Origin: a bacterium
GTDB lineage: Bacteria; Vulcanimicrobiota; Xenobia; Xenobiales; Xenobiaceae
Assembly: GCA_022839105.1 (NCBI GenBank)
Contig: JALHDH010000006.1
Span: 9,726-73,725 of the forward strand
Direction: 5' to 3'
Length of the DNA: 64,000 nucleotides
Every line of letters starts with the position of its first letter. The stretch's first letter is position 1. Below, one piece after another: positions 38,231 to 57,823 of the stretch. The notes beneath the pieces were generated by a model. It was not told the origin of the DNA. It searched no databases and worked only from the letters and a program-made list of their open reading frames with translations. Both the position numbers and the translations under genes were made by a program.

Positions 38231-38303
38231 GCCCGCTTTTTCGTGGCCAGCCCCGGAGTGCCTGCAGGGGCACCCGCCTGCGCGCAGAACCCAGGTCCTG
38301 CCG

Positions 38304-39665: not shown

Positions 39666-40472
39666 TCAGGAGTCTGCCGGAGTCCGCTCTTCCAGGGTGG
39701 TGCGGATCCGCTCGGAGACCTCTTCGATGGTCCCGGTCCCGTCGATGGCCAGATACTCTCCCTGTTTGCGGAAGTAGTCCATCACCGGCTCGGTTTCCTG
39801 GCGGTAGATCTCCATGCGGTTGCGGATCACCTCAGGGGTGTCGTCGGCGCGCCCCCGCCCTGCCAGGCGACGGGTGACCTCCTCCTCGGGGATCTCCAGG
39901 CCCAGGACCAGGACCCCGCCCCAGCCGAGTTCCTGGCGCATCTCCTCGAACTCCGCGAGCTGCTCGCCCTGCCGTGGGTAGCCGTCCAGGATGAATCCGC
40001 GGGCCGCATCCTCGCGTTCCAGGCGGCTCTGGACCAGGTCGCGGATCAGGGAGGGAGGCGCCAGCTTTCCGCCTCGGGTCTCTTCTTCCAGGCGCTGACC
40101 CAGCTCGGAGCCCGAAGCGACCTCCTGGCGGATCAGGTCGCCCACCGAGATATGGGGGATCCCCTTCTCCTGGCCGAGGAGTTGTCCCTGGGTGGACTTT
40201 CCGCTGCCCGGAGGGCCCAGCAGGACGAAGCGGAGTGCCGCTCCGACCGGTCCGGGAACGGCTCCCGCCGCGGCATCGGAGGCAAGCAGGGAGGCCGTGG
40301 GCATGCCCGGCAGGGTTCCCTGGACGTAGCGCGGGGGCGCGGCGGCCTGAGGAGTCGCCTCGAACCGGTCCGTCACGCGGGTTCCCTGGCTGGTCATCGG
40401 AGCGACGGCTCGCCAGGGGCCGCTCTGCAGGATCGAAGAAAGGGTCGGCCTGGAAGTGCTGATCGGATTCAT
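39666..40472 (-). CDS. adk: Adenylate kinase (short-LID type) with possible ~80-aa N-terminal extension
   Basis: RFVLLGPPGSGKSTQ (P-loop), ISVGDLIRQ, FILDGYPR and the short LID GRGRADDTPEVIRNRMEIY are present. Internal ATGs could give a shorter product. Confidence 0.85.
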   Translation of the reverse strand: MNPISTSRPTLSSILQSGPWRAVAPMTSQGTRVTDRFEATPQAAAPPRYVQGTLPGMPTASLLASDAAAGAVPGPVGAALRFVLLGPPGSGKSTQGQLLGQEKGIPHISVGDLIRQEVASGSELGQRLEEETRGGKLAPPSLIRDLVQSRLEREDAARGFILDGYPRQGEQLAEFEEMRQELGWGGVLVLGLEIPEEEVTRRLAGRGRADDTPEVIRNRMEIYRQETEPVMDYFRKQGEYLAIDGTGTIEEVSERIRTTLEERTPADS

Positions 40473-40653: not shown

Positions 40654-41865
40654 TTGGTCCGGGAATCCGGGCTGCCCGGACGGCGGGCCCCTGCGAGGTT
40701 GCTCTTGCCCTTCTCGAACTCCACTTCTGGCAGGGGGTGCGCCCGATTCGTGCCCTCCGGCGGCCTGCTTCCGCTCGGAAGAGGCCTGGCGGTCTGGCTG
40801 GCCGTCTTGCTCGTCGTGCTCTGGGCCCCCTCGGCCTGGGGGCAGGAACCGCCTGCCGGCATGGAACCCGGGGTCCGAGGGGGCGCGACCATGCCGGGCG
40901 GGGGGATCGAGCCTTTCGGTGGAGGGGGCGGACCCGGCCCCGGCTCCGAACAGTTGATTCCCGCCCGGGGCTCCGAGTCTTCCGGGACCGGGACCGGGAC
41001 CGTGGCCTTCTTCCTGGTGGTGGTCCTGTGCCTTTTCGGTTTCCACCTCTTCACCAGTCACGGCCTGAACTCCAGGATCGATCGCCTGGAGAGGATGGCG
41101 CGCAAGGCGTCCGGGAGCCGGGAGGGCGACGAACTGGTCCCCTTCTCCTGGGATGCGGTCCTGCGCAACCTGGAGGGGGGAGCCCCCTTCCTGCCGGGGG
41201 TGACCCTCCCCCGGCCGGGCGTGGTGCTGGTCGGGGTCTCCCAACCCGAGTTGATCCCCATCCTCCTGGCCAATCTCTCGCACTGCGTCCTGCAGGATCC
41301 CGAGCTGGCCGTCCTGGCCGTGACTCGGAGCCTGGGTGCCGACGAACTGGGAAGACGCCTGCTCTCCCTGGAGACGGGGCGGGACTGGAGGACCCTGGGC
41401 CCGGAGGCCCGGCGCTCCCTGCTCCAGGGAACAGCCCGCGGCCTGCAGCGTTATGAACGCTCGCTCTTCTGCATGACCGATCTGGCCGTGTCCCCACGAC
41501 AGCTCTTCGAGGCCTGCCAGGACCTGCGCAAGGAGGCGGAAATGGGGGCCGTCCTCCTGGACGACCCGGGGGTGCTGGTGGGCGAACCCGATCTGCCGGA
41601 AATCGGGATCCTGGACCATCTCCGGCTCCTGGCCGCACGCTGTCACGTGCCGGTTTATCTGGTCGTCCCGCTCGACTCGCCGGCCTGGCAGGCACGTGAG
41701 GAATTCGACTCGTACGTGGCGATTGCCGAGATACCGCCCGTCGTGGAAGGGCGTCTTGGCCTGCGCTTCCATCGTTTCCCGGGCAGCGCCCCGGAACTGG
41801 AGCTCCGCCTGGACCCGGCCTCCGGACGGCTGGAACCGGCCCGGTCGGTCGGGGACGGCGCCTGA
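40654..41865 (+). CDS. Bitopic membrane protein with cytoplasmic Walker-A-less RecA/DnaB/KaiC-like domain (hypothetical)
   Basis: Signal-like segment LAVWLAVLLVVLWAPSAWG, a Gly/Pro-rich stretch, then the TM VAFFLVVVLCLFGFHLF. LVPFSWDAVL is followed by GVVLVGVSQPELIPILLANL where a P-loop would sit. Later come LLDDPGVL and YLVVPLD strand-like motifs. The start is uncertain (TTG 40654). Confidence 0.5.
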   Translation: MVRESGLPGRRAPARLLLPFSNSTSGRGCARFVPSGGLLPLGRGLAVWLAVLLVVLWAPSAWGQEPPAGMEPGVRGGATMPGGGIEPFGGGGGPGPGSEQLIPARGSESSGTGTGTVAFFLVVVLCLFGFHLFTSHGLNSRIDRLERMARKASGSREGDELVPFSWDAVLRNLEGGAPFLPGVTLPRPGVVLVGVSQPELIPILLANLSHCVLQDPELAVLAVTRSLGADELGRRLLSLETGRDWRTLGPEARRSLLQGTARGLQRYERSLFCMTDLAVSPRQLFEACQDLRKEAEMGAVLLDDPGVLVGEPDLPEIGILDHLRLLAARCHVPVYLVVPLDSPAWQAREEFDSYVAIAEIPPVVEGRLGLRFHRFPGSAPELELRLDPASGRLEPARSVGDGA

Positions 41866-41866
41866 A

Positions 41867-42892
41867 GTGCTCCGCCGAGTGCGTGCCTTTCTGACCCCTC
41901 GGCCCGTTCTGCGGGCCCTGCTGGTGGCGCTGGTGCCCCTGGTGGTCTTCTCCATCCTCATGGAACACCGGATCTCCACCTGGGTGGCCGGCACGGCCCG
42001 GGTCCGGAGCAGTGAGTGGACCGAGTTCCGTCCGCACCCGACGATGTTCTGGCGACTGCGCCCCAACCTGGATGTCGAACTGGCCATGCGGGGCGAGCGC
42101 TTTCGGGTCTCCACCAACTCTCAGGGGATCCGCAGCCCCGAGATCCCCTTCCGGAAGGGAGCGCGGACCTGGAGGGCCTGGTCCCTGGGAGACTCGATCA
42201 CCTACGGATACGGGGTGGATGACGACAAGACCTACCAGAGCCGTCTTCAGGACAAGCTCCAGAGGCTTCACCCGGATCGGGAGATCCAGATCCTCAACGG
42301 AGGATGCCCGGGGTGGACCTCGTTCCAGGCCCGCGAGTTGACCCGTGCGGTCGGCCTGAAGTACCAGCCGGATCTCTATATCCTGGGCTGCGTCTATGCA
42401 GACCCTGCCTACGAGGACAAGTCCGATTCCGCTCGGGTGGACGCCAACCCCCTGGTGCGCTGGTTCCGCCTGGCCCTCTTCCGCAGCGAGTTCTACATGT
42501 TCTTGCGCCAGAGGGTGGTGCGGCGCAGCAACCCCGAGGGGCTCCCGCCGGCGGATTATTCCCTGGCCACGCCCCGGGTGCCCCCCGAGGAGTATCGCGA
42601 GATCCTCAACTGGTTCGTCGGTCAGGCCCGGGCCAGCGGAGGGCATGTGGTCTTCCTGAACCTGGGCAAGCGGGACCCGGATCCTCATCCGGGCTATGAT
42701 CAGTTGCGCAGGATCGCCCAGGAGGTCGCCCGGACGACGGGGAACGCGTGGGTGGACGTGGACGCCATGTTCAAGGAACGCCCGGATCGCGCCAGCCTCT
42801 TTTCCGACCGGATCCACCCCAACGCCAAGGGATTCGAGTTGATGGCCGAGGCCCTGGCCCAGGCCATCGAGGAGAAGGGGTGGATCCCGTGA
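41867..42892 (+). CDS. SGNH/GDSL-family hydrolase, N-terminally membrane-anchored
   Basis: SLGDSITYGYG (block I Ser), NGGCPGWT (block III) and DRIHPN (block V Asp-x-x-His) are present. N-terminal TM is LLVALVPLVVFSIL. GTG 41867 lies 1 nt after the previous stop. Confidence 0.8.
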   Translation: MLRRVRAFLTPRPVLRALLVALVPLVVFSILMEHRISTWVAGTARVRSSEWTEFRPHPTMFWRLRPNLDVELAMRGERFRVSTNSQGIRSPEIPFRKGARTWRAWSLGDSITYGYGVDDDKTYQSRLQDKLQRLHPDREIQILNGGCPGWTSFQARELTRAVGLKYQPDLYILGCVYADPAYEDKSDSARVDANPLVRWFRLALFRSEFYMFLRQRVVRRSNPEGLPPADYSLATPRVPPEEYREILNWFVGQARASGGHVVFLNLGKRDPDPHPGYDQLRRIAQEVARTTGNAWVDVDAMFKERPDRASLFSDRIHPNAKGFELMAEALAQAIEEKGWIP

Positions 42893-44160
42893 GGCTGCGA
42901 ATCCTGCTGATGGCGCTCTGCAGTCTCCTGGCCCTGGCCAACCCCGTCTGGGCCCAGCAGCCAGGGCATCAGGCTTCGACCCGTCAGCCGCACATGTTCT
43001 ATGAGCCCCAGGCCAAGTACCCTCCCCTGGGCGCCATGCAGGCCTTCCGAGAGGGGCTGCCCATGGCCATCGGGTCCGCCCTGGTCTCCCTGGTCCTGGC
43101 CATGTGGTTGACCCGCCCCCTGCCGGAGGTCGAGAGGGCCCTCTACGAGCGTCAGGCCAGGAACAGCCAGCCCGAACCCCCGAAGATTCCACCTCCCCCA
43201 GGGCCCCCGGAACAGGATGCGGTGGACCTCGCAGAGCCCCTCGGGGAGGCTGCGACGCCTGAAGCAGAGGCGGAGCCGGTGTCCGGGCCCGGATCCGAAA
43301 GCCCGCTTCTGAAGGAGGTTCCTGGGCCCGCGGACCTGCCGGTTCTCGATTCTCCGGAAACCCTTCCGTCCGTTCTCAGGCCGGCAGCGCTCGAGCCGTC
43401 GCCCCCGAGGCCGGAGGCGCTCCGTCCCGTGGAGCGCCCTCCCCAGGCCCGCCCCCTCGTCCCGGCCCCTCCCGCAGGGACTTTCGGTTCCACTCGCGGG
43501 ATCCGTCCCCCCTTGGAGACCCCCCTGGTGCCGTTCGCCTGGGAACAGGTCGCCCCCGAGAACATGCTGCCCTTCCGTGAGGGGGAGTTCTGCAACCCCG
43601 GCCTGGTAGTCTACCTGGTGGAGCCGGAGCGGGTGGCGGGGCTCCTGGCAGCCCTGGCCGTGGAACTCCTGCTGGAGTCGCCCGGCAGCCTGGTCCTGGC
43701 GACGGTCTCGGCCGGTCCCCTGGAGGTGGTCCAGTTCCTTCTGGAGGCCGGTCCTGCCACCCCCCCAGCGGAACTCCTGGCCCGCCTGCGTCGGGAGGGC
43801 CGGGCCATGGAGAGGATCGTCCGCCGCGTCTGGACACCTCCCCCGGGAGGAATGCCCCTGGAGGACCTGTTGCGCCGGGCACGCGAACTCCGCGAGGGGC
43901 GCGGCGGTCTGGCCGGAGTCGTCCTCGAACCGCTCACCCGTCTGGAGTTGGGGGGAGGGGAGTTCTCCGCCTGGTTGGAGTGCCTGCACCAGGGGGCGGC
44001 CCTGGCCGGACTCCCACTCTTCATGGTCGCTTCGCGCCGGGGCTTCCCGATCGAGTCCTGCCCGGGGCGGATCCTGACCCTGGGCAAGGCCGAGGTCTCC
44101 CGGATCACGGAATCCCGAGGTCCAGGGAAGGATTCTCCCGGACCTTCGCTGGCCTCATGA
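42889..44160 (+). CDS. Paralog of 40654-41865: signal peptide, TM, Pro-rich linker and Walker-A-less RecA-like domain
   Basis: MRLRILLMALCSLLALANPVWA|QQ, then the TM MAIGSALVSLVLAMWL. LVPFAWEQVA is followed by GLVVYLVEPERVAGLLAALA, which aligns with the first paralog. GTGA overlaps the previous stop. Confidence 0.55.
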   Translation: MRLRILLMALCSLLALANPVWAQQPGHQASTRQPHMFYEPQAKYPPLGAMQAFREGLPMAIGSALVSLVLAMWLTRPLPEVERALYERQARNSQPEPPKIPPPPGPPEQDAVDLAEPLGEAATPEAEAEPVSGPGSESPLLKEVPGPADLPVLDSPETLPSVLRPAALEPSPPRPEALRPVERPPQARPLVPAPPAGTFGSTRGIRPPLETPLVPFAWEQVAPENMLPFREGEFCNPGLVVYLVEPERVAGLLAALAVELLLESPGSLVLATVSAGPLEVVQFLLEAGPATPPAELLARLRREGRAMERIVRRVWTPPPGGMPLEDLLRRARELREGRGGLAGVVLEPLTRLELGGGEFSAWLECLHQGAALAGLPLFMVASRRGFPIESCPGRILTLGKAEVSRITESRGPGKDSPGPSLAS

Positions 44161-45215
44161 GGTTTCTCTCCCGGACCGGCTGGCTGGCGGCCCTCTTCGC
44201 CGTCCAGGTCACGATGCTGGCAGCCCTGCTGGCCTGGTCGGCCAGCGTTCGCGGCGAGATCCGGATGGAACTGGAGGCTCGCCTGCCCGAGCCCGATCCC
44301 GGGATCCACCTGCCGGCCGGGGACTCCCTGGAGACCGCGAGCATCCTGGGCGGCTCAGAGTTTTTGGGGATCGAGCTGCCCACCCCGTTCCGCCGCCATC
44401 TGTCCTACCTGAACGGGCAGATGTTCTGGTTCCTTCTGAAGAGGGAGCCCTCCGCGGGAGCTCCCCTGCTGGGCCTGATCCAGAAGAGCCCAACCGAGCT
44501 GGAGGATTCCGGACGCCTCCAGGAGGGACTCCGAGACGGCGTCCTGAGTTTTCTCTATGATGTGGGCGGGCATCGGGATCTGGCCCGCCAGAACTGGTCG
44601 GCCACCGTGGTCCGCGAACTCCAGGCGCTGCCCCTGCTGCCCTGGAACAAGAAGCTGGATTTCGTGGTCCTGTCCAGTCTGGCTGATACGAGCGTCGGCG
44701 GGCTGGGTTTCATCGCCGACCTCAATCCGGAGATCCTGTTGATCATGCCGGACCACGACCCGGCCCGCCTGGAGGAGCTTCGCCTGTTCCGCCGCCGCCC
44801 CAATGCGGTGATCCTGCCCGTCGGGACCCATCCTCTGCTCCCCGGCCTGTGGGCCCAGGTGCTCGAGGCTCCCGCGGGTTCGGGACACCCGGCGGAACTC
44901 AACCTCCTGGTGGAAGGCAGGGATGGGCGACTGGCGCTCTTCTCGGGGAGTTCCCTGAATCGGCCGATCGACTCCCTGCGTCAGGCGCGGCGGAGCACAG
45001 GGCGGGAAATCCTCCGCTACGTCGGGTCGACGGGCTACACGGTCGGCACGCAGACCTCCGCACTCCAGGACGAAGTCCGGGTTCTGCGTCAGGAGTTCCC
45101 CGAGTTGGTCCTGATCCCCAACGGGGATACCAGCCTGGTGGCCCACGGTCTCCTGGAAGCCCTCCTGGGGGCGCACTATCGGCCAGGCAGTCTGGGGACG
45201 CGGGTGGAGTTGTGA
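44157..45215 (+). CDS. Membrane-anchored hypothetical protein
   Basis: ATGA overlap with the previous gene. N-terminal TM is GWLAALFAVQVTMLAALLAW. DFVVLSSLADTSVGGLGFI vaguely resembles a metallo-beta-lactamase motif-2 region but lacks the His residues. No confident family call. Confidence 0.45.
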   Translation: MRFLSRTGWLAALFAVQVTMLAALLAWSASVRGEIRMELEARLPEPDPGIHLPAGDSLETASILGGSEFLGIELPTPFRRHLSYLNGQMFWFLLKREPSAGAPLLGLIQKSPTELEDSGRLQEGLRDGVLSFLYDVGGHRDLARQNWSATVVRELQALPLLPWNKKLDFVVLSSLADTSVGGLGFIADLNPEILLIMPDHDPARLEELRLFRRRPNAVILPVGTHPLLPGLWAQVLEAPAGSGHPAELNLLVEGRDGRLALFSGSSLNRPIDSLRQARRSTGREILRYVGSTGYTVGTQTSALQDEVRVLRQEFPELVLIPNGDTSLVAHGLLEALLGAHYRPGSLGTRVEL

Positions 45216-47143
45216 ATCTCAAGCGCCGTCTTTCTTTGTCGGAATGGCTGGGCTGGGGGGGGCTCTGCGTGCTGCTGGCCTTGTGGCAGACCTCCGCCTG
45301 GCAGGGACGCTGGACCACCCACTACCTGGGCGCCGGCGAACTGGAGGGCTGGCTCTGGCGCTACTGGTGGCTCAAGATGCTCATGACCGAGGCCTGGACC
45401 ACGCCCGGTGTCGGTCTGGACCTGGCGATCTGGGTCTCCCTGGTGGCGGGAGCCTACCCGGAGACGGGCAACGTCCTGGACCTGCAGGTCCTCTCCTGGC
45501 CCCTGGAAGCCCTGTTCGGAGCCCCTCTCTATCACAACGTCAAGTGCGCCCTGGTCCTGGCCCTCAACGGCATGGCCGGCTACCTCCTGGGGCGGGAGGT
45601 CCTCAAGTCCCGGAGCGCTGCGGCGGTCTGCGGTCTGGTCCTGCTCTTGAGCCCCTACGCGCTGCACGAGATCGCCAACGGCAGGGTTCGCCAGGCCATC
45701 CTGTTTCCGCTGGCCCTGTATGCGCTGCACCTGATCCGGCTTTGGCGCTCGCCCGATGCGGTCCAGGCCGTCTACACCGGGATCTGGGCGGGACTGTGCT
45801 CGGCGGTCTACCTCTATTACGGGATGGGGGTGGCCTTGTTCACGGCCCTCTTCCTGGTCCTGGCCATTCCCTTGGGGGCGGGAGCGCGATTCCGGTTCCC
45901 TCACCTGGGCGCCGGAGTCCTGACCCTCCTGGTCGCGCTGCTGACGGCCCTGCCCTTTGCCTGGGCCTACGTGGACCACTTCTTCAGCGGGCACGGTCTC
46001 TTTGAACTCTCCTGGAAGCGCGATTTTCCGCCCTTGAGCCAGTTGACCTCGCCCGATGTCAACGTGCTCCTCAAGCAGAACGACCAGTTGCTCAACTCCC
46101 TGCAGCGCTTCCGCAATGACTCGCTGCCCTGGCAGTATCCCTTCATGCCGCGCTTCTACCGGGGAATGCCCTGGGTCTTCTCGGTCCTGGCGCTGCTGGC
46201 CATCCCCCTGTGCTGGCGGACTGGTCCGCGTTCGGAGGAGGAGACCTCGTTGCCCCGTGCCCGGGACCTGGTTCCCTGGCTGGGGGGGGCGCTCTTCTTC
46301 TACATGCTGACCCTGGGCCCGTATCTCATCAGCGGCGCGGAAGGTCGCTACGTCGCCTTCGAATCGGGAGGCGTGGCCACGCCCTACGTCTGGTTCTTCA
46401 AGAATCTTCCCGCCTTCTCTCGTCTCTTCTCGCCGATCCGGATGTCCGGGATGATGGTGGTCTGCGTCGGGGTCCTGGCAGGTGCCGCCTTCCAGGCGCT
46501 CGCCACCCGCCTGTCCATGCCTCGAGCCGTGCGCCTGGCTTCGCTGTTGCTGGTGGGCTTGCTGGTGGTCCACGGGATGAAGCTCTCCCGAGCCATCCCT
46601 CTGACAGAGACCGAGATCCTGATCCCGGAGTTCTATCATCGCCTGGCCGAAGAACCCTTCTGCGCCGTGGCCGAACTGCCGTTCCGAACCGGAGACTATA
46701 TCCAGAACTACCAGACGGTGCATGAGAAGAGGCTTCTGGGAGGCTGGTCCGGGGTGACCACGCCTCCGGGCTTTCCCGAGGGGAAGCTCACCCGGCTGGC
46801 CGAGGTCTTCACCGGTCTTCTCGAGAACACGTTCTTCCGCTACCTGGAAAGCCTCAACGCCCATCCCGAGAGCCCATCCGAGTTCACCGAACGGGATTTC
46901 CGCTGGATCGTCCAGAGGTACGGGCTGCGGATGGTGATCGTCCACGAGCGGGGCTACTATCGGGACAGCCCCTTCGGCGGTCGGGAGCAATACGAACTGG
47001 TCCTGGCTGAGCTCCAGAAACACTTCGGCCCCCCCGCCGAGATCCACACCGAGCTGGCCTTCGAACGCCTGGGTCCGAACCATTCCCCCTGGGATCTTGG
47101 CCCCTTCGAATATGAGATGGCCGTCTTCCGGGTCCGGCCCTGA
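45212..47143 (+). CDS. Large polytopic membrane protein with C-terminal soluble domain (GT-C-like candidate), paralog of 49170-51005
   Basis: GTGA overlap with the previous gene. More than 10 hydrophobic segments. It shares WLWRYWWLKMLM and YHNVKCALVLALNGMAGYLLG with the paralog's WVWRDWWFRLMM and AWNLKVGLVLAANALGGYLLG. Confidence 0.65.
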   Translation: MNLKRRLSLSEWLGWGGLCVLLALWQTSAWQGRWTTHYLGAGELEGWLWRYWWLKMLMTEAWTTPGVGLDLAIWVSLVAGAYPETGNVLDLQVLSWPLEALFGAPLYHNVKCALVLALNGMAGYLLGREVLKSRSAAAVCGLVLLLSPYALHEIANGRVRQAILFPLALYALHLIRLWRSPDAVQAVYTGIWAGLCSAVYLYYGMGVALFTALFLVLAIPLGAGARFRFPHLGAGVLTLLVALLTALPFAWAYVDHFFSGHGLFELSWKRDFPPLSQLTSPDVNVLLKQNDQLLNSLQRFRNDSLPWQYPFMPRFYRGMPWVFSVLALLAIPLCWRTGPRSEEETSLPRARDLVPWLGGALFFYMLTLGPYLISGAEGRYVAFESGGVATPYVWFFKNLPAFSRLFSPIRMSGMMVVCVGVLAGAAFQALATRLSMPRAVRLASLLLVGLLVVHGMKLSRAIPLTETEILIPEFYHRLAEEPFCAVAELPFRTGDYIQNYQTVHEKRLLGGWSGVTTPPGFPEGKLTRLAEVFTGLLENTFFRYLESLNAHPESPSEFTERDFRWIVQRYGLRMVIVHERGYYRDSPFGGREQYELVLAELQKHFGPPAEIHTELAFERLGPNHSPWDLGPFEYEMAVFRVRP

Positions 47144-47175
47144 CCTGGCTTCCAAGGTGGGGAACTCTTGAGAGG

Positions 47176-49173
47176 ATGGCGAAGGCCGCCGGCATGCTGC
47201 GCTCGCTCTTGACCCTCTTCCTGCTCTTCGTGCTGACCGGGGCTTCCTGGTGCCAGGAACTCCTGGAGGTCCAGTTCCGGTTCACCCCCTCCGGGAGTCC
47301 CCGGACCGTCTCGGTGGTGGGCTCATTCAACGGCTGGAGCCCGGAGGCCCACCCCATGTCCGACCCCGACGGGGACGGAACCTGGGAGGCGATCCTGGAG
47401 CTCGAACCGGGCCTTTATACCTACAAGTTCCTGGTGGACGGAAGGGCCTGGTATCCCGACCCTGCGGCTGGAGAACAGGCCGACGACAACTTCGGAGGGG
47501 TCAATTCGCTGCTGCGGGTGGGCGAGGTGGGCCAGGGGAGCCCGGCCGTGGCCCTCCGCCACGGAGCCGGTCCGCAGTACTGCAACCGGTTGCCTGACGG
47601 AAGGGTCCGGGTGCGCCTGCGCACGCCGCCGGGAGTGCGCGCCGAGGAGTGGGAGGTCGTCACGCCTTCCAAAAGGCTCCGCCTGGAGCCGGGCTGGAGC
47701 GATGGCGTCTTTTCCTATCCCCAGGCCCGGCTTCGCCCCGGGACGCGGATCTACTGGTTCCGCCACAAGGACGCCTGGCTGGGAGCCTCGGGCCTGGGCC
47801 GCTTCCCAGGCCGCCCCTTCGTGGTGCCCCAGGGCCCCCTCTTCCAGACTCCTGGATGGGTCTCGCAAGCCGTCTTCTATCAGGTCTTCCCCGAGCGCTT
47901 CGCCAACGGAGACCCCTCCGGGGACCCTCCGGGGACGCGGCCCTGGGGCGACCCTCCCGAGAACTTCAACTTCTTCGGCGGCGACCTGGTCGGGTTGACC
48001 AGCCGTCTCGACGAACTCCAGGACCTGGGGGTCGGGGCACTCTATCTGAATCCGGTCTTCGAGGCTCCTTCCAACCACAAGTATGACACGACGGATTATT
48101 TCCGGATCGACCCGGCCTTCGGGACCGAGCTGGATTTCCGCCATCTGGTCGAAGAGTCCCGCCGTCGGGGGATCCGCATCGTCCTGGATGGCGTCTTCAA
48201 CCATTCCGGGACCGGCTTTTTCGCCTTCCAGGACCTGGTTTCCCGAGGGCAGGAGTCGCCCTTCCGTTCCTGGTTCTTCGTCGAATCCTTCCCGATCCGG
48301 ATGGAGCCCAAGCCCAACTACGAAGCCTGGTGGGGTTTCTCCCACCTGCCCAAGCTGAATACCGGTGAACCGGCAGTCCGCGAGTACCTTCTGAAGGTGG
48401 CGACCTGGTGGATTCGCGAGTTCGGGGTCGCCGGGTGGCGCCTGGACGTGCCCAACGAGGTGCCCCACTCCTTCTGGAAGGAGTTCCGCGCCGCAATCAA
48501 GACCGTGGACCCCGAGGCCTACATCACCGGCGAGATCTGGAGCGATGCCTCTCCCTGGCTCCAGGGGGACCAGTTCGACGGGGTGATGAACTACCCGGCC
48601 CGGGCCGCGATCCTCGACCTGCTCACCGGAAAATCTGACGGTCAGGCCTTCCTGCTGTCCATCCAGAAGACCCTGCTGCCCTATCCGGAGCAGGCCCACG
48701 GGGCCCTGCTGAACCTGTTGGGGAGTCACGACACTCCGCGGATCGCCACCCTGCTCGAGAAGGACCAGACCCGCCTGGCCCTGGCCGAGGTCCTCCAGTT
48801 CACCCTTCCCGGGACCCCGATGATCTACTACGGGGATGAGATCGGAATGGAGGGAGGCAAGGATCCGGATTGCCGCCGATGCTATCCGGTGGATCCCGAG
48901 GCCGGGGATCGCCGGCAGAGGGAGCGCCTGGCGCACCTGGTCTCCCTGCGCCGGGACCTGGCTCCCCTGGTCCAGGGGGACTTCCATCCGCTCTTTGCCG
49001 AGGGGCCCGCCCTGGCTTTCGAACGGCGGTTCTTGGATCAGGCGGTCCTGGTGGCCGTCAACGCCGGATCGGAACCGGCACGGATTCCCGGGCTTCAGGG
49101 CCGGGATCTCCTGAGCGGGGATTCCCTTGCAGGAGTCCTGCCGGGCCGTTCGGCAGCGGTCCTGTCGCGATGA
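47176..49173 (+). CDS. Secreted GH13 alpha-amylase-family enzyme with N-terminal CBM48/E-set module (neopullulanase/cyclomaltodextrinase-like)
   Basis: Signal peptide MLRSLLTLFLLFVLTGASW. CBM48-like segment VSVVGSFNGWSPEAHPMSDPDGDGTWEAILELEPGLYTYKFLVDG. GH13 regions are I DGVFNHSG, II GWRLDVPNEV, III GEIWSD and IV LLGSHDTPR. Confidence 0.9.
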   Translation: MAKAAGMLRSLLTLFLLFVLTGASWCQELLEVQFRFTPSGSPRTVSVVGSFNGWSPEAHPMSDPDGDGTWEAILELEPGLYTYKFLVDGRAWYPDPAAGEQADDNFGGVNSLLRVGEVGQGSPAVALRHGAGPQYCNRLPDGRVRVRLRTPPGVRAEEWEVVTPSKRLRLEPGWSDGVFSYPQARLRPGTRIYWFRHKDAWLGASGLGRFPGRPFVVPQGPLFQTPGWVSQAVFYQVFPERFANGDPSGDPPGTRPWGDPPENFNFFGGDLVGLTSRLDELQDLGVGALYLNPVFEAPSNHKYDTTDYFRIDPAFGTELDFRHLVEESRRRGIRIVLDGVFNHSGTGFFAFQDLVSRGQESPFRSWFFVESFPIRMEPKPNYEAWWGFSHLPKLNTGEPAVREYLLKVATWWIREFGVAGWRLDVPNEVPHSFWKEFRAAIKTVDPEAYITGEIWSDASPWLQGDQFDGVMNYPARAAILDLLTGKSDGQAFLLSIQKTLLPYPEQAHGALLNLLGSHDTPRIATLLEKDQTRLALAEVLQFTLPGTPMIYYGDEIGMEGGKDPDCRRCYPVDPEAGDRRQRERLAHLVSLRRDLAPLVQGDFHPLFAEGPALAFERRFLDQAVLVAVNAGSEPARIPGLQGRDLLSGDSLAGVLPGRSAAVLSR

Positions 49174-51005
49174 GCCCGCTGGGGTGGCGCGGCTGGGCCT
49201 GGCGCGTCTCCAGGCCGATTGGCCTCCTTCCCCTGCTCATGCTGCTGGGGGCGGTGCTGGCCATCGCCTGGCCCCAACCGGGTTCCTGGAGCGGGACGGG
49301 TCGGGACCTGGGCTTGTGGGTCTGGCGGGACTGGTGGTTCCGCTTGATGATGGGGGATGTCCTGGCAGGCCGGACGCCGCCCCTGGAGGCCCTGAGCGTC
49401 CTTCTGAGCGGAGGCCTGGGCCCCAATCTCTTCAGCCCCGTGGACCTCTATCTGTTTTCGGCCCCGTCCTGGTTGATTGGGACCGGAGCGGCCGCCTGGA
49501 ACCTCAAGGTCGGCCTGGTGCTGGCCGCCAATGCCCTGGGAGGCTACCTTCTGGGCCTGGGGATCACCCGGGACCGCTGGGCGGCCCTCCTGGCCGGGGC
49601 GGTGCTGGCCTTCAACCCCACGGCACTGGGCTTGATCGAGAGGGGGGATCTGCGCGACGCCTTGTGGGTCTTCCCAGCCCTCTTCCTGGCCAGCCTCTTC
49701 CACCTGGAGAGGCCCGGGTCAGGCTCCCGATCCTGGTTGCTCTCGGCCACGCTGGCCGGTTGCTTCCTGACGACCTGGTTGCAGGGCCTCCTGGCCCTTT
49801 TCGCCCTGGGCCTGCTGGCGTTCTCGGGGACCTTGCCGGGATTCCGGAGGAATCTCCGCTCCCGGCTCTTCAGTCTGCTCCCCGGCATGCTCCTGGCCGC
49901 GATCTTCCACGGTCCCGTCCTGGCGGCCATCCTGGAGGGGGCCTATCCCTTCTCCTGGCCGGCGCCTCTGGCCGGTCCCCTGGAAATCCGCATGCTCGGC
50001 GAGCATCGGGCCTTGCACGAGAGCTCGCGGTCCCTGGATTTCCTGGCAGACCCGCAGCATCCGGAAGGCCTCAACCCGTTGCTGCTTCTTCTGCTCGTGC
50101 TCCCCCTGGCTCGAAGAACCCGGGGTTGGTACCTGCTCGCCTTCGCGGGTCTGGTCCTGGTTGCGGGACCCTATCTGCGTCAGGGCCTCGCGGGGCAGCC
50201 GGTCCTGTTGGGGGGAAGCCCCGTCCCATTGCCCTTCCTCCTCCTGTATCGTTGGATTCCGGGGATGACATGGGTCGAGTCTCCCGTCTGGTTCGCCCCG
50301 CTGCTCTATCTCGGTCTGGCAGCGCTTGGATCCCGAAATCTGGTGGCGATCCAGGGTTGGTTCGCAGAGCAGGCCTTCCTGGCCCCCCTGATGGCCCTGG
50401 TGGTGCTCGGAGTCACGGCCATGGACGCGACGCATCGGGGCAGCCTGCCCCTGCGCCACGTCCAGCTCGAGCCACCGGCCCTCTATCTCGGCCTGGAGCC
50501 TGGGGAGGGGGGCTTGATCGAGTCTCCGGGGACCGGGGATCGCAAGACCCTGGACTTCTATCAGGCCGCAACCGGACTGGTGGTCCTGGGCGGCGCCGCA
50601 GACCGCGAGGCTCTTCCCGGTCTGGCCAGCCCGGCGGCCCGAGTCTATCGGACCCCGGTGGAGGTTGCCCAGGTGCCGTTCCTGCGTCACCTGCTGGAAC
50701 CCGGACGCTTCCCTCAGGGGCCCGATCCCCGAGGCGACCTGGAGCGACTGCGCCGGGCGGGGTATTCCCACGTGATTCTTCACGAATCCAGGATGGAGGG
50801 GCTGGCTTCCGGTCCGAGGACCTTCCTGTACCTGGTGGCCAGGCTGAGCGCCTTCACGGGGCCTCCCCGCCTGGGCCTCGAGGTGCGCGAGGACTTCCCG
50901 CAGCGGGACGGAAGCCTGGTCCGTTCCCCGGAGAAGCGTCGAGGTCGGCTGGCCATGTTCTCGTTGGGGAAGGGGAGCACCGCGGTGGGTGCGAACGGGC
51001 CGTGA
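49170..51005 (+). CDS. Large polytopic membrane protein, paralog of 45212-47143
   Basis: ATGA overlap with the GH13 stop. More than 10 hydrophobic segments and shared motifs with the paralog (see 45212-47143). Confidence 0.65.
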   Translation: MSPLGWRGWAWRVSRPIGLLPLLMLLGAVLAIAWPQPGSWSGTGRDLGLWVWRDWWFRLMMGDVLAGRTPPLEALSVLLSGGLGPNLFSPVDLYLFSAPSWLIGTGAAAWNLKVGLVLAANALGGYLLGLGITRDRWAALLAGAVLAFNPTALGLIERGDLRDALWVFPALFLASLFHLERPGSGSRSWLLSATLAGCFLTTWLQGLLALFALGLLAFSGTLPGFRRNLRSRLFSLLPGMLLAAIFHGPVLAAILEGAYPFSWPAPLAGPLEIRMLGEHRALHESSRSLDFLADPQHPEGLNPLLLLLLVLPLARRTRGWYLLAFAGLVLVAGPYLRQGLAGQPVLLGGSPVPLPFLLLYRWIPGMTWVESPVWFAPLLYLGLAALGSRNLVAIQGWFAEQAFLAPLMALVVLGVTAMDATHRGSLPLRHVQLEPPALYLGLEPGEGGLIESPGTGDRKTLDFYQAATGLVVLGGAADREALPGLASPAARVYRTPVEVAQVPFLRHLLEPGRFPQGPDPRGDLERLRRAGYSHVILHESRMEGLASGPRTFLYLVARLSAFTGPPRLGLEVREDFPQRDGSLVRSPEKRRGRLAMFSLGKGSTAVGANGP

Positions 51006-51697
51006 TGAGCACCTGCAGCCTGATCCTGCTGACCTACAACGAGATCGCCGGGAGCCGGGCCCTCCATCCCAACCTGCCGCTCTCGCTCTTCGATGAGGTC
51101 CTGGTCGTGGATGGCGGATCGCAGGACGGAACCCGGGAGTTCTTCGAAGGCCAGGGGATCCGGGTCGTCGGGCAGCAGCGCAGGGGCCGGGGCGAGGCCT
51201 TTCGGGTCGGGGCTCGGAATACCACCGGCGATCTCCTGGTCTTCTATTCTCCCGATGGCAACGAGGACCCCGAGGACCTCCCACGTCTGCTGGAATGCCT
51301 GCGGGCGGGAGCCGACCTGGCCATCGCCTCGCGTTTCGCCCCGGGGGCGCGCAATGAAGAGGACGACCAGCTCTTCCGCCCCCGAGCCTGGGTCAACATG
51401 GCCTTCACCCTGATCGCCAACCTGCTCTTCGGGCGGGGGGTCTTCCTCAGCGACACCATCAATGGTTTTCGGGCCATCCGCAGGCCGGCCTTCGAGAGTC
51501 TGCGCCTGGACGAGCGCGGCTTTCCGATCGAGTACCAGATGAGCATCCGGGCCATGAAGGCCGGCCTGAGGATCGTCGAGATCCCCACCCGGGAAGGAGA
51601 CCGGATCGGCGGGGCCTCCAAGGCCGAGTCCTTCCCCGTGGGCCTCGGCCATCTCAAGGTCTTGATTCGCGAGATCCTGCGATTCAGGAGTTTCTAG
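51005..51697 (+). CDS. GT2 glycosyltransferase (polyprenyl-phosphate sugar synthase-like: DPM1/ArnC/GtrB type)
   Basis: LILLTYNE, VLVVDGGSQDGT and LLVFYSPDGNEDPEDL (DxD-equivalent) are present in a short 230-aa soluble form. The ATG overlaps the previous stop (TGATG). The 856-aa ORF-track ORF is real only over its last 230 codons. Confidence 0.85.
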   Translation: MSTCSLILLTYNEIAGSRALHPNLPLSLFDEVLVVDGGSQDGTREFFEGQGIRVVGQQRRGRGEAFRVGARNTTGDLLVFYSPDGNEDPEDLPRLLECLRAGADLAIASRFAPGARNEEDDQLFRPRAWVNMAFTLIANLLFGRGVFLSDTINGFRAIRRPAFESLRLDERGFPIEYQMSIRAMKAGLRIVEIPTREGDRIGGASKAESFPVGLGHLKVLIREILRFRSF

Positions 51698-52623
51698 CTG
51701 GCCTGGTTGCCTCGGCCCAGGTTTGGCGCCAGGGCGTAGAGCAGCCCGCCACCGACTCCGGTGGCCAACCTCAGGGCGTGGAAGAGCATGGACAAGGCCA
51801 TGGCCTGGGCCGGGGTCATGGCTTCTCCCAGCAGCGTCACCATGAACCAGTCCTGCAATCCGAATCCGTTGATGGTGACCGGCAACTGGGCGAAGACCGA
51901 GACGGTCGGCACGAACAAGAGCAGGGGCAGCAGCGGAGGGTTCAGGCCCAGGGCCCTGGCCAGCAGCGCGTGGATCCCCACCAATGCCAGGGGAGCCACC
52001 AGCGAGACGACCAGGCAGCCCCACCAGACCGTCCGCCGCCCCCGATAGGCTCCCACCGCCAGACGCAGGCGGTGCAGCCATTCCGTGAAGCCCGTCCCGG
52101 AGCGGCGTCCCCCCGGCCGGACCCCTTCGAACCACAGATAGCCCAGCACCAGGGCTGCACAGAGTCCCGCCGAGGCCAGGGTCAGCGGCCAGAGGGCCTC
52201 CGGGGCCCTCAGGAAGGCGGCCAGGAGCGTGACCGAGGCCAGGGCCACCTGGCCGACGGTGCCCGACCAGCGCTCGGCCAGGACCGAGGCCATCACCTGG
52301 GGGAGGGCCTCCTGCTCGCGGCCCAGGTCGGTCGCGCGCTTGAGGTCTCCGGTTCCCGTCAGGAAGGAGTTGAAGAAGTAGCCGACCGCGTAGTGGTAGG
52401 CCAGCCTGGCGAATCCTGGCCGGATCCCCTGGACTTCCAGCAGAAGGCTCCACTTCCAGGTGTTCACCAGCACGATTCCGGCCATCGTCAGGCCGGCCAG
52501 GCCCAGGGGGAGCCAGTGGACCCGGGTCAGGGTGGGCAGCCATTGATCCGGGGGGACCTGCGTGAGCACCAGGGCCAGCAGGCCGGCCGTCAGGAGCCAG
52601 CGCAGGATCGCCGCCGCCTTCAC
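51694..52623 (-). CDS. LPG_synthase_TM / UPF0104 flippase-like membrane protein
   Basis: About 8 hydrophobic segments. YHYAVGYFFNSFLTGTGDLKRATDL matches the family's conserved loop. GTG 52623 overlaps the upstream stop (GTGA). Confidence 0.7.
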   Translation of the reverse strand: MKAAAILRWLLTAGLLALVLTQVPPDQWLPTLTRVHWLPLGLAGLTMAGIVLVNTWKWSLLLEVQGIRPGFARLAYHYAVGYFFNSFLTGTGDLKRATDLGREQEALPQVMASVLAERWSGTVGQVALASVTLLAAFLRAPEALWPLTLASAGLCAALVLGYLWFEGVRPGGRRSGTGFTEWLHRLRLAVGAYRGRRTVWWGCLVVSLVAPLALVGIHALLARALGLNPPLLPLLLFVPTVSVFAQLPVTINGFGLQDWFMVTLLGEAMTPAQAMALSMLFHALRLATGVGGGLLYALAPNLGRGNQAS

Positions 52624-53768
52624 CTCTTTCGCGGCCTCGGCCTGGGAAAGAGCATGGGGGTCTGCTGGCGGTAGTCCAGGTATTCCTGGCCGAAGACCCG
52701 GATCAGGTCCCCATCCTGCCGGGAACCGTTCCAGGCCAGGGACCATGCGAGCAGGACCGGCAGGATTCCGGCCAGGAAGCTCCAGGAGTTGAAGACCAGG
52801 CCCAGGCCCGTGACGCCCAGGAGCTTGGCCAGGATCGAGGGATGGCGGACCACCCGGTAGGGGCCAGTCCGGACCAGGCGGCGGGTCTTGGCCGAGAAGG
52901 GGGGGACGGGACCGCCTTCGCCTTCCAGGATCAGGAAGGTGTAGCTCCAGAACAGGAGCCCCCCCCCGGCTCCCAGCAGAAGACAAGCCAGTGCGAGGTT
53001 CCAGGGGAAGGGCAGGACCTCGGGCAGACCCAACAGTTCGTCCACACGACAGCCCGCCCAGGCCAGCAGCGAGGCAAAGGGGATCAGGACGAGCCCATAG
53101 ATGGGCAGGATCACCAGCATCTCCGGGCGCAGCGCACAGCGCAGGCGGTCGGCCGTGGTGAAAGGTCCGGGCGTCCAGGAAGGGTCGAAGGCGAGGCCCC
53201 GGAGCACGGCGACCCGTCGGCCTTGGGCCTTCGGGGTTTCGGGATCTTCTCGGAATCCTCGGGATTCCAGTGCGTTCCAGGCCTCGGTGCGATCTTCGGG
53301 CAGTCCGACCCGGATCTCCCGGGCTCCTTGTCGGCTCAGCCCATCCACTGCCGCTCTGAGAAGCCCGGTGGCCAGTGCCGGGAGGGGAGGTTCCGGGCCG
53401 AACCCGATGGCCAGGATCTCGGCGGTGGTCCCGGGGCGTTGCAGGCCGCCCAGAAGGAAGCGCAACGTGCGCAGAGTCCGCCTGGGGGAGGTTCCCAGAT
53501 GGGCCAGGAAGGTCCCCGGGCGGCGGGACCACAGGTCGCAGGCCAGACGCTGGCGATCACTGGTGGCCAGGACGAATCCCTGGATCCGTCCTTCCTGGGT
53601 CACCACCGTGGCCAGGGCCAGGGGGCTCTGCAGCAGGACCTCCCAGAGCGATTCCAGGAGGGGCAGGGCTTCCGCGGGAAGGCCCAGTTCCCGGGCATGC
53701 ATCCGGGCCACCTGGGGAAGGTCCGCGGCTCGGAGCGGCCGCACGGAGGGGGGCGGAGCCTCTCTCAT
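52620..53768 (-). CDS. Fusion protein: GNAT-like N-terminal domain + ICMT/PEMT-family membrane methyltransferase domain
   Basis: N-terminus: VRPLRAADLPQVARMH...GRIQGFVLA...GLLRAAVDGLSRQGAREIRVGL...NALESRGFRE (GNAT pattern). C-terminus: RLVRTGPYRVVRHPSILAKLLG...VFGQEYLDYRQQTPMLFP (ICMT/PEMT pattern) with 4-5 TMs. ATG 53768 overlaps the upstream stop (ATGA). Confidence 0.65.
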   Translation of the reverse strand: MREAPPPSVRPLRAADLPQVARMHARELGLPAEALPLLESLWEVLLQSPLALATVVTQEGRIQGFVLATSDRQRLACDLWSRRPGTFLAHLGTSPRRTLRTLRFLLGGLQRPGTTAEILAIGFGPEPPLPALATGLLRAAVDGLSRQGAREIRVGLPEDRTEAWNALESRGFREDPETPKAQGRRVAVLRGLAFDPSWTPGPFTTADRLRCALRPEMLVILPIYGLVLIPFASLLAWAGCRVDELLGLPEVLPFPWNLALACLLLGAGGGLLFWSYTFLILEGEGGPVPPFSAKTRRLVRTGPYRVVRHPSILAKLLGVTGLGLVFNSWSFLAGILPVLLAWSLAWNGSRQDGDLIRVFGQEYLDYRQQTPMLFPRPRPRKR

Positions 53769-57812: not shown

Positions 57813-57823
57813 GCCACAAGACC

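Follow-up and report, generated by a model that had tools for sequence, protein, structure and literature searches.

An operon of eight coupled genes

What task could unite a run of tightly packed genes that encode large polytopic proteins, a GDSL-type hydrolase, an amylase-like enzyme and a short glycosyltransferase? The question arises at positions 40654–51697 of the window (the whole stretch of DNA that was analysed, 64,000 nucleotides from an uncultivated, Eremiobacterota-type bacterium of the Xenobiaceae), where eight co-directional genes on the plus strand, g1 to g8, form what we interpret as a lipid-carrier glycosylation operon. The genes g1 and g2 are separated by a 1-nt gap (g1 stop at 41865, g2 GTG at 41867), followed by a GTGA overlap of g2 and g3 (42889–42892), an ATGA overlap of g3 and g4 (44157–44160), a GTGA overlap of g4 and g5 (45212–45215), a 32-nt gap between g5 and g6 (47144–47175), an ATGA overlap that translationally couples g7 to g6 (49170–49173) and a TGATG junction of g7 and g8 (51003–51007).

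All seven junctions reproduce exactly those of a preliminary description of the locus, and its domain calls could each be verified with Pfam, NCBIfam, PDB profiles, BLASTP, hhalign and Foldseek. Its nine-gene operon is reduced to eight: the coupled, co-directional series stands, but the ninth gene, g9 (51694–52623, minus strand), is convergent, shares with g8 only the CTAG at 51694–51697 that contains the stop codons of both, and belongs to another transcription unit. As had also been stated, no Wzx/Wzy, ABC, synthase or Wza/Wzc components were detected in the operon by Pfam.

GT-C-fold proteins and a polyprenyl-phosphate-sugar synthase-like GT2

The g5 product (45212–47143, plus strand) was modelled by AF2 with a pLDDT of 90.2 and a pTM of 0.91. 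When the model was compared with known structures by Foldseek, as the preliminary description had proposed for its unknown membrane proteins, it matched STT3 (1e-6), DPY19, PglB, ArnT (1.7e-4), AftD, AftA and Pmt4, all with probability 1.0, although the likeness is moderate (TM 0.45–0.50, 11–14% identity). The model confidently points to a GT-C-fold membrane glycosyltransferase of an unclassified family. No Pfam model matches this family; signatures of STT3 or PMT were not found in g5, nor those of ArnT, PMT_2 or YfhO in g5 or g7. The family comprises 13,183 clusters (50% identity) at E≤1e-3, and all of the clusters sampled consist of unnamed metagenome proteins. Two acidic residues of the first external loop, E43 and D90, and the basic residues R158, R404 and R410 are conserved across the family, which fits the expectation for GT-C catalysis and lipid-phosphate binding. 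In the model the C-terminus carries an extracytoplasmic alpha/beta domain, and E488 and H504 of this region are conserved.

The other large polytopic protein, g7 (49170–51005, plus strand), is a divergent member of the same family. BLASTP aligned it to g5 in two segments (3e-8 and 4e-6), in agreement with the paralogy proposed earlier, and it keeps the invariant Asp of the g5-family alignment. Both proteins are predicted to be GT-C-fold glycosyltransferases of one family, and none of the proteins first listed as unknown gave a confident match to a described polysaccharide pathway.

The last gene, g8 (51005–51697, plus strand), encodes a short soluble GT2. It matches Pfam Glycos_transf_2 (2.5e-15), the NCBIfam models for AglJ (9e-27) and Dol-P-hexose transferase (1e-15), in both cases short of the cutoff, and, in the PDB, Pyrococcus DPMS, a Dol-P-Man synthase (4e-16), and ArnC (2e-6). 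These matches agree with the assignment to the polyprenyl-phosphate-sugar-synthase type and place g8 nearest to dolichyl/undecaprenyl-phosphate glycosyltransferases. Together with the GT-C fold of g5, they bear out the proposed logic of a GT2 working with a polytopic transferase. A distant g5 homologue (31% identity, locus L003) is coupled directly to a GT2.

The top structural matches of g5, namely STT3, PglB and DPY19, glycosylate proteins, as does Pmt4, and the enzymes that g8 resembles, AglJ and Dol-P-Man synthase, both serve protein glycosylation. Since g5 also has a C-terminal extracytoplasmic domain with conserved E488 and H504, g5 and g7 could be imagined as OST-, PMT- or DPY19-like oligosaccharyl- or monosaccharyltransferases whose substrates are envelope or secreted proteins. 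We consider such a general protein glycosylation system unlikely, as the C-terminal domain in the g5 translation contains no motif of the WWDxG type, the STT3 and PMT Pfam matches are lacking, the Foldseek E-values to ArnT, AftD and AftA, which use lipid or glycan acceptors, are just slightly weaker, and none of the conserved cassette proteins is a candidate acceptor.

Pseudoenzymes accompany the transferases

The product of g1 (40654–41865, plus strand; the start may be TTG at 40654 or GTG at 40750) is a type-I bitopic protein: a signal peptide and a Gly/Pro-rich ectodomain are followed by a single TM helix, and the domain on the cytoplasmic side has a DnaB-type RecA fold. It has no match in Pfam or NCBIfam, its family numbers only 17 proteins, and the sole PDB match of its profile is the DnaB C-terminal domain (E 0.03). 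The cytoplasmic domain was modelled at pLDDT 85–95, and the model matches DnaB and T7 gp4 with a Foldseek E of 2e-12 and probability 1.0. The g3 product (42889–44160, plus strand) has a similar architecture: a signal peptide precedes a short ectodomain bearing the conserved motif F-x2-P-x3-Y-P, and a Pro-rich linker joins the single TM helix to a DnaB-like domain; hhalign joined the two families with a probability of 97.3% (E 2e-11, 193 columns), making them paralogues. The earlier designation as bitopic RecA-like proteins holds for the fold, but no GK[ST] or Walker A motif was found in the g1 family alignment. Because the P-loop is missing, g1 and g3 are pseudo-ATPases.

For g4 (44157–45215, plus strand), previously an anchored unknown, the N-terminal anchor was upheld and the fold could be identified as that of a metallo-beta-lactamase (MBL). 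Its profile matched the PDB entry 7dck, a 'Lactamase_B domain-containing protein' (E 3.5e-9), TM1679 (9e-5) and 2p4z (4.5e-4). Every metal-ligand motif is replaced; for example, the template's HphwDHiGG is aligned with LSSLADTSVGG. Judged from its sequence, g4 appears to be a membrane-anchored MBL-fold pseudoenzyme. The orientation of both g4 and g2 is predicted solely from the positive-inside rule.

A conserved four-gene core

Short overlaps are common in compact high-GC genomes, and no promoter or terminator signals above background delimit the unit, as would be expected if unrelated neighbours without a common function had merely been packed together. We give this explanation almost no credence, because it is contradicted by synteny. 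The full cassette g1–g8 recurs in two other species-level genomes (L004, L005) and sub-cassettes recur on more than ten further contigs, so the arrangement exceeds chance; the order g1-g2-g3-g4-g5-(g6-g7)-g8 is kept at 45–86% protein identity in several species-level genomes. Loci L001 and L008 hold g1–g5, g8 and g9, with g5 at about 45% identity. A minimal cassette of a g1-like DnaB-fold protein, the dead MBL (g4), the GT-C (g5) and a Dpm1-like GT2 (g8), at 40–45% identity, is found in L009–L011 and in L048, where it lies in a wholly different setting, between ruvC and ruvAB.

On 15 distinct contigs the orthologues of g4 and g5 are direct neighbours, with g4 upstream; this neighbourhood comparison shows that the genes are co-conserved and not just juxtaposed. 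In the cassettes g5 is always accompanied by g4 and usually by a P-loop-less bitopic DnaB-fold protein (g1, plus g3 in the clade of the present locus). The g8 protein is 68–86% identical in L001, L004, L005 and L008–L011 and is present in L048 as well. The remaining genes have a narrower distribution: g2 is kept in L001 and L004–L008, g3 is found only in these same loci, and both are clade accessories. Occurrence of g6 is limited to L004–L007, the closest (UBP9/Xenobia) relatives, and among these g7 orthologues occur only in L004 and L005; both genes are missing from the cassettes of L001, L008, L009–L011 and L048.

Accessory hydrolases and the alpha-glucan theme

The g2 product (41867–42892, plus strand) matches Pfam Lipase_GDSL_2 (3e-19) and its translation shows the motifs GDS(I)TYG and D-R-I-H, in keeping with the proposed membrane-anchored SGNH esterase. 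It is an N-terminally anchored SGNH/GDSL hydrolase with a catalytic domain that is predicted to be extracytoplasmic. The secreted CBM48-GH13 enzyme was likewise recovered in g6 (47176–49173, plus strand), which matches Alpha-amylase (7e-71), AMPK1_CBM (1e-10) and CBM_48 (3e-6) and, in the PDB, maltogenic amylase 1sma (4.6e-139). It has an N-terminal signal peptide and intact catalytic regions GWRLD, EIW and SHD, and is of the neopullulanase, maltogenic amylase or cyclomaltodextrinase type.

On this enzyme rested the earlier suggestion of an alpha-glucan-containing surface polymer, for which the GT-Cs would use polyprenyl-P-glucose and the secreted g6 would elongate, branch or trim the product by transglycosylation or hydrolysis. 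An intact, exported enzyme of this type whose gene sits between both GT-C genes, in an order kept in L004–L007, argues for it. However, g6 is absent from an otherwise conserved cassette at 40–45% identity and is therefore a lineage-specific add-on, not core; with the GH13 and the second GT-C confined to the closest relatives, alpha-glucan cannot be the core theme. Moreover, the g8 matches do not single out glucose as the sugar, and no glucan synthase or GlgE-type gene was detected in the operon by Pfam. We regard this reading as doubtful.

The convergent operon

The convergent g9 matches PF03706 (LPG_synthase_TM, 3e-28) and TIGR00374, 'flippase-like domain' (2e-7), and encodes an MprF-flippase-like membrane protein of 309 aa from a GTG start at 52623. 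It overlaps by GTGA an upstream PEMT/ICMT-like methyltransferase gene (52620–53768, minus strand; Pfam PEMT 1e-8), which is in turn coupled by ATGA to a B12-binding radical SAM gene (53765–55231, minus strand; B12-binding 8e-25, Radical_SAM 3e-31). This coupling marks a separate transcription unit with g9 as its last gene. Thus a flippase-like gene does converge on the end of the cassette, as first described, but it terminates an operon of its own. This operon is kept near the cassette, in synteny, in L001, L004, L005 and L008; around the minimal cassettes (L048, L009–L011), neither g9 nor the lipid genes occur within 10 kb. In Myxococcota MAGs, too, B12-radical-SAM genes lie repeatedly in the vicinity of g5-family genes.

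The synteny in four loci and this recurrence, together with ArnT among the significant structural matches of g5 and a cultured member of the phylum that is diderm and has LPS (PMC9758169), would suit an ArnT- or YfhO-like decoration of lipid, lipid A or cell wall that is functionally linked to the lipid-modifying genes nearby. We hold this to be quite improbable: the minimal cassettes have none of those genes within 10 kb, all radical SAM family matches of the HpnJ-like B12-radical-SAM gene fall below family cutoffs, and g5 and g7 carry no ArnT, PMT_2 or YfhO sequence signature.

Proposed function

We favour, with a probability of about 0.6, a lipid-carrier-dependent glycosylation machine at the outer face of the cytoplasmic membrane, of the GtrB/ArnC-plus-GT-C type and with new non-catalytic subunits. 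At the cytoplasmic face, g8 would charge polyprenyl phosphate with the sugar of a nucleotide sugar; the lipid-linked sugar would be flipped, with the adjacent g9 as candidate flippase; and g5 would pass it to an extracytoplasmic acceptor, its paralogue g7 probably acting likewise in the UBP9/Xenobia clade. Purely from their co-occurrence, g1, g3 and g4 may be non-catalytic subunits that act as a scaffold, handle the acceptor or regulate across the membrane. Tailoring or processing of the product would fall to the clade-specific accessories, g2 and the secreted g6. The GH13 suggests that the sugar or acceptor of the UBP9/Xenobia clade is related to alpha-glucan; as it is missing in most cassette versions, it gives little information on the acceptor of the core system.

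Comparison with known systems

Three-component glycosylation is an established concept for bacterial glycans (PMC11127046), and the extracytoplasmic systems include GtrA/GtrB/Gtr(V), ArnC/ArnEF/ArnT, CsbB/GtcA/YfhO and PPPRS/MATE/GT136 (the last from Kelly et al. 2024, PMC11127046). The present locus shares with them a small GT2 synthase (g8) beside GT-C transferases (g5, g7) and a candidate lipid flippase nearby. It differs in its GT-C family, which no Pfam model matches and whose sampled clusters contain no named member, and in its flippase candidate, an MprF-type protein (PF03706) encoded in another operon, no GtrA, SMR or MATE flippase being present. The dead MBL and the P-loop-less DnaB fold have no counterpart in these systems. 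With STT3/PglB (GT66), DPY19 (GT98) and ArnT (GT83), g5 has in common the GT-C fold and a first external loop with conserved acidic residues, whereas its low identity, its lack of a family Pfam match and of WWDxG, and its different C-terminal domain set it apart.

The g6 catalytic domain (E 1e-139) resembles the GH13 group of ThMA (1sma) and TVAII in its intact regions; unlike these mostly cytoplasmic enzymes, it starts with a signal peptide, carries a CBM48 at the N-terminus where they usually have their N-domain, and is encoded between two GT-C genes. Profile similarity of g4 to COG1237-type MBL-fold proteins (7dck, TM1679/3h3e, 2p4z) extends over most of its domain, but its HxHxDH motif and downstream His/Cys ligand positions are all replaced, it has an N-terminal membrane anchor, and its link to a GT-C gene is obligate. 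Finally, g1 and g3 share the fold of the C-terminal RecA-like domain of DnaB and T7 gp4, including a Walker-B-like strand and the next helix-strand. They lack the Walker A lysine and the DnaB N-terminal domain, have a signal peptide, a short ectodomain and just one TM helix as membrane anchor, and are set in a glycosylation operon instead of the replication context of DnaB and T7 gp4.

Eight co-directional genes form a tightly coupled operon

The preliminary description of this region had proposed an operon of nine genes. Translation of all nine and reading of each junction reproduced its junctions exactly, and eight of the genes, here called g1 to g8, are co-directional on the plus strand at 40654-51697; the ninth, the flippase-like gene g9 (51694-52623, minus strand), proved to be convergent. 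The plus-strand genes are tightly coupled. A single nucleotide separates g1 from g2 (41865/41867), the next three junctions are overlaps of GTGA at 42889 (g2/g3), ATGA at 44157 (g3/g4) and GTGA at 45212 (g4/g5), a 32-nt gap at 47144-47175 lies between g5 and g6, and the last junctions are overlaps of ATGA at 49170 (g6/g7) and TGATG at 51003-51007 (g7/g8). The convergent stops of g8 and g9 share a CTAG at 51694-51697. The start of g1 is uncertain (TTG at 40654 or GTG at 40750); with both starts the N-terminus is signal-peptide-like, and it is kept in homologues. GC content of the window is ~67%, a scan for promoters and terminators gave signals at background, and Rfam returned no regulatory RNA element in the 33-60 kb part of the window.

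A GT2 of polyprenyl-phosphate type and two GT-C proteins of an unmodelled family

Pfam and NCBIfam searches bore out four of the domain calls made earlier and identified the convergent gene: g9 encodes an LPG_synthase_TM protein ('flippase-like domain', Pfam 3e-28). No match to g1, g3, g4, g5 or g7 was found in either collection. The product of g8 is a short GT2 (Pfam 2.5e-15) that resembles AglJ (9e-27) and Dol-P-hexose transferase (1e-15) in NCBIfam, with all NCBIfam scores below the equivalog cutoffs, and Pyrococcus Dol-P-Man synthase (DPMS, 4e-16) and ArnC (2e-6) in the PDB. By these comparisons g8 is a GT2 of the polyprenyl-phosphate glycosyltransferase type.

Weak paralogy links the two large polytopic proteins, g5 and g7 (BLASTP 3e-8). 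An AlphaFold2 model of g5, built from an alignment of 39 g5 homologues, reached a mean pLDDT of 90.2 and a pTM of 0.91, and its top Foldseek matches in the PDB were GT-C enzymes only (TM 0.45-0.50, identity 11-14%), namely yeast and human STT3, the C-mannosyltransferase DPY19, PglB, ArnT, AftD, AftA and Pmt4, with a probability of 1.0 for eight different GT-C families. Conservation in the close family extends to a diverse sample of 56 members for two acidic residues, E43 and D90 of the first external loop, for three basic residues (R158, R404 and R410) and for two residues of the C-terminal domain (E488 and H504); the acidic and basic ones would fit GT-C chemistry. The model, the Foldseek matches and the conserved acidic residues mark g5 as a transferase of GT-C fold whose active site lies outside the cytoplasm.

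A word-indexed homologue search returned tiny families (43, 17 and 14 proteins), which for g5 was misleading: exhaustive profile search, counted as 50%-identity clusters, gave 13,183 at E<=1e-3, 6,468 at 1e-10 and 1,024 at 1e-30. Pfam matched none of 56 spread members of this family except for three marginal PMT_2 hits (~1e-3), cluster look-ups for ten diverse representatives gave no informative names, and the family profile found nothing meaningful in the PDB. An oligosaccharyltransferase (OST) assignment was rejected, as its defining motifs are absent; g5 has no Pfam match at E<=0.1, and thus no STT3, and the C-terminal halves of the g5 and g7 translations contain no WWD of the WWDxG motif. 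ArnT/PMT and YfhO were likewise rejected, since neither protein matches a family HMM (Pfam PMT, PMT_2). Because Pfam and the cluster names were silent for the members sampled, bar the three marginal hits, we conclude that g5 and g7 belong to a family of GT-C-fold enzymes for which neither Pfam nor NCBIfam has a model, and not to OST, ArnT/PMT or YfhO.

These assignments suggest a generic scheme in which g8 would make a polyprenyl-phosphate sugar, this lipid-linked sugar would be flipped, possibly by g9, and g5 and g7 would then pass the sugar to an extracytoplasmic acceptor. The three-component systems covered in the review of Kelly et al. (PMC11127046) follow this logic. The acceptor could be a protein, given that the best structural matches of g5 are OST, DPY19 and PMT, but the missing OST motifs in g5 and g7 speak against it, and we regard a protein acceptor as a possibility that is no better supported than the generic scheme.

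Two enzymes that may tailor the product

The product of g2 is an SGNH/GDSL hydrolase (Pfam 3e-19) whose translation carries a GDSITYG nucleophile block and a DRIH (DxxH) motif. A signal peptide precedes the CBM48 and GH13 domains of g6 (Pfam Alpha-amylase 7e-71). The closest structures to g6 in the PDB are maltogenic amylase, neopullulanase and cyclomaltodextrinase (1sma, 4.6e-139), and its catalytic regions are intact in the translation (DGVFNH, GWRLDV, EIW and SHD), as in a GH13 enzyme of the neopullulanase type; NCBIfam equivalog cutoffs were not reached. Both enzymes would tailor the glycosylated product. The presence of a GH13 enzyme could mean that the acceptor is an alpha-glucan, yet this support is specific to the clade that carries g6, and an alpha-glucan is again possible without standing above the generic scheme.

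g1, g3 and g4 have lost the catalytic motifs of their folds

In the PDB, the profile of the g1 family (17 proteins) matched nothing but the C-terminal domain of the DnaB helicase, at E 0.03, in an alignment that spans the Walker-B strand and the helix-strand after it. The cytoplasmic domain of g1 was modelled by AlphaFold2 with pLDDT 85-95, and Foldseek matched it to DnaB and T7 gp4 with a probability of 1.0 and E ~2e-12 (DnaB 2.4e-12), which gives this domain a RecA-like fold of the DnaB type. Plain BLASTP between g1 and g3 was not significant and the g3 profile found nothing significant in the PDB; at profile level g1 and g3 are paralogous (hhalign 97.3%, E 2e-11), and they have a common layout of signal peptide, short ectodomain, one transmembrane helix, linker and DnaB-like domain. 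The Walker A motif GxxxxGK[ST] is absent from g1, the aligned loop being variable in its 17 homologues (GVSQPE, GVATPG, GASSGN and others), and the alignment of the g3 family lacks GK[ST] too. With its defining motif missing, g1 was rejected as a DnaB helicase. The term 'RecA-like', given to both proteins in the preliminary description, is therefore right as to the fold, as the DnaB matches show, and has to be amended as to activity: without Walker A, g1 and g3 are pseudo-ATPases.

The N-terminus of g3 (42889-43120) contains an ecto-motif, F-x2-P-x3-Y-P (PHMFYEPQAKYPP), that is invariant in 7/7 homologues down to 25% overall identity. Through this segment g3 might contact a partner outside the cytoplasm.

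A g4 profile built from a 14-member alignment of related loci matched metallo-beta-lactamase (MBL) superfamily structures in the PDB: 7dck, a 'Lactamase_B domain-containing protein' (E 3.5e-9), TM1679 (3h3e, 9e-5) and 2p4z (4.5e-4), the latter two being metal-dependent hydrolases of that superfamily. One of the g4 homologues is labelled Candidatus Xenobium; this label and the UBP9 names of the nearest genomes probably put the window in class Xenobia of Eremiobacterota. The HxHxDH block is missing from g4, where sSLeeesvgG aligns to sHphwDHiGG of the template, and so are the later His/Cys ligands (GCaH is replaced by SGSg and the C-terminal cHCtG by pNGdTS); Ser, Leu, Thr and Asn occupy the template's metal-ligand positions. 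Since these positions are replaced, g4 is, as judged from the alignment, an N-terminally anchored pseudoenzyme of MBL fold that lacks the metal ligands. The positive-inside rule predicts that its domain lies outside the cytoplasm.

The core of the cassette is g4 and g5

To survey conservation, a g5 profile was scanned against one genome per species, g1 to g9 were mapped by tblastn onto all fetched loci (numbered from L001), and three further contigs were looked up. The full set of g1 to g8 with convergent g9 was found in UBP9_UBA6111 and UBP9_UBA1432 (L004 and L005), and L006 and L007 carry g1 to g6 up to the contig end. The order g1-g2-g3-g4-g5-g8, with g9 nearby and without g6 and g7, occurs in L001 and in the goat-rumen genome L008 (~45% g5 identity). 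A minimal cassette of a g1-like gene, g4, g5 and g8 is present in human-gut and other MAGs (L009-L011 and L048; ~41-43% g5 identity), where the L048 version is placed between ruvC and ruvA-ruvB, and L041 has the g1-like gene, g4 and g5 before its contig ends. In Eremiobacterota ('Vulcanimicrobiota') and other MAGs, g4-g5 is often accompanied by a tandem g5 paralogue (L002/L012, L013, L017, L020), and a 31%-identity g5 homologue in L003 is directly coupled to a GT2. More distant homologues, in Myxococcota and other MAGs, are g5-family genes in tandem, with neither g4 nor g1.

From these versions we conclude that g4 and g5, together on 15 contigs and usually with a g1-like gene and a GT2, are the core, that g2 and g3 are clade accessories, and that g6 and g7 form an insertion found in the closest relatives only. 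Several MAGs with close cassette homologues (L006, L007, L014, L015, L025-L029 and other loci) are recorded as 'Burkholderiales' or 'Enterobacterales', labels that probably reflect mis-assigned taxonomy or mis-binning.

In the proposed scheme g4, g1 and g3 would be non-catalytic subunits. We tentatively go one step further, with a probability of roughly 0.3, and propose that the dead MBL-fold g4 and the membrane-spanning, P-loop-less DnaB-fold g1 and g3 might be obligate subunits of a new GT-C holoenzyme, in which pseudo-ATPase domains, arranged in the cytoplasm as a ring or platform, would be wired, through single transmembrane helices and short conserved ectopeptides, to the extracytoplasmic pseudo-hydrolase and the GT-C, coupling the cytoplasmic state to glycosylation outside. 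We know of no other glycosyltransferase with this architecture; if the proposal is correct, the large unclassified GT-C family would have its founding member here.

The operon lies in an envelope-modification neighbourhood

The flippase-like gene is the last of a minus-strand operon (51694-56755) that encodes, in order, a FecR-domain protein, a B12-binding radical SAM protein (HpnJ-like, below cutoff), a PEMT/ICMT-like methyltransferase and g9, and that is syntenic in L001, L004, L005 and L008. The ATG of the PEMT-like gene overlaps the stop of the radical SAM gene (ATGA), and the most likely start codon of g9, GTG 52623, lies in a GTGA overlap with the stop of the PEMT/ICMT-like gene and gives 309 aa as in L001. 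In L001 the corresponding operon runs on into a PMT_2-type GT-C; this 561-aa protein, which adjoins the flippase-like gene, was rejected as a g5-family member (hhalign probability 3%). The g9 operon resembles a module for modifying a lipid or a lipid-linked sugar, and g9 may serve several GT2/GT-C pairs; it is tied to g5 by proximity only. These neighbouring lipid genes, and the ArnT-like similarity of g5, make a lipid or lipid A a third possible acceptor, no better supported than the generic scheme; the one cultured member of the phylum is a diderm with LPS (PMC9758169).

Further along the plus strand, a second GT2 (57063-57812) overlaps a PMT_2-type GT-C (57617-59590), a pair also found in L001, and these are followed by a B12-binding radical SAM gene (59508-60998), a 539-aa ORF (60979-62598) and an HxsB-like radical SAM/SPASM maturase (62616-63998). 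Distant g5-family GT-C genes form tandem pairs in L024-L044 (Myxococcota and other MAGs), and most of these loci also have, 5-9 kb away, a B12-binding radical SAM gene ~30% identical to that at 59508-60998, which suggests a recurrent association of GT-C and B12-binding radical SAM genes. L002 and L003 likewise have radical SAM genes adjoining members of the g5 family.

Just upstream of the operon, at 37232-39617, two radical SAM ORFs are divergent and overlapping, one HxsC-like (minus strand) and one SPASM-type (plus strand); the pair is kept in L004-L006 and the HxsC-like member also in L001. An adenylate kinase gene encoding an N-terminal extension of ~80 aa (39666-40472, minus strand) is divergent from g1, a position kept in L004 and L005. 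A P-type ATPase and a C39-like peptidase are also encoded upstream, as are two giant TPR-repeat proteins of ~1,735 and 1,479 aa (13982-23660) and, 7 kb upstream and outside the operon, a TPR-repeat protein with a fused Wzy_C (O-antigen-ligase-like) domain (30666-33761). The TPR-repeat and Wzy_C-TPR genes are envelope-related. From these surroundings we conclude that the operon sits in a larger conserved envelope-modification neighbourhood.

Significance and comparison with known systems

If our reading is correct, a large GT-C family, with thousands of clusters and no Pfam or NCBIfam model, joins the enzymes of lipid-linked glycosylation, and the cassette offers a first functional handle on envelope glycobiology in Eremiobacterota of the uncultivated Xenobia/UBP9 branch and in their relatives from gut and rumen. 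That a GT-C is strictly linked to two different pseudoenzymes would also make it a testable question how extracytoplasmic glycosylation can be scaffolded or regulated across the membrane. The compact version, with its four genes, is of a size that suits heterologous reconstitution. The lack of a cultured host or phenotype sets a limit to the interest of the system. Literature searches on Eremiobacterota/Xenobia glycosyltransferases, on 7DCK and on PF03706 with glycosyltransferases gave nothing relevant, and nothing comparable to the two pseudoenzyme partners turned up in the literature searched.

In agreement with the preliminary description, Pfam and NCBIfam detected no Wzx/Wzy, Wzm/Wzt (ABC-type), processive synthase or Wza/Wzc component among the nine products. 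The cassette follows the same lipid-linked glycosylation logic as the Gtr, Arn and CsbB/YfhO systems, and falls outside the named GT-C families and the classical flippases. Whereas those three-component systems include a dedicated small flippase in the unit (GtrA, the SMR proteins ArnE/F or a MATE protein), Pfam and NCBIfam found none among the nine products here; the only flippase candidate among them is the PF03706 flippase-like g9, which belongs to a convergent operon and is absent near the minimal cassettes. To our knowledge, the two conserved pseudoenzyme partners have no counterpart in the three-component systems compared. Two features are of interest here: the GT-C family is large and unclassified, and the GT-C is obligatorily paired with a pseudo-MBL and a DnaB-like protein.
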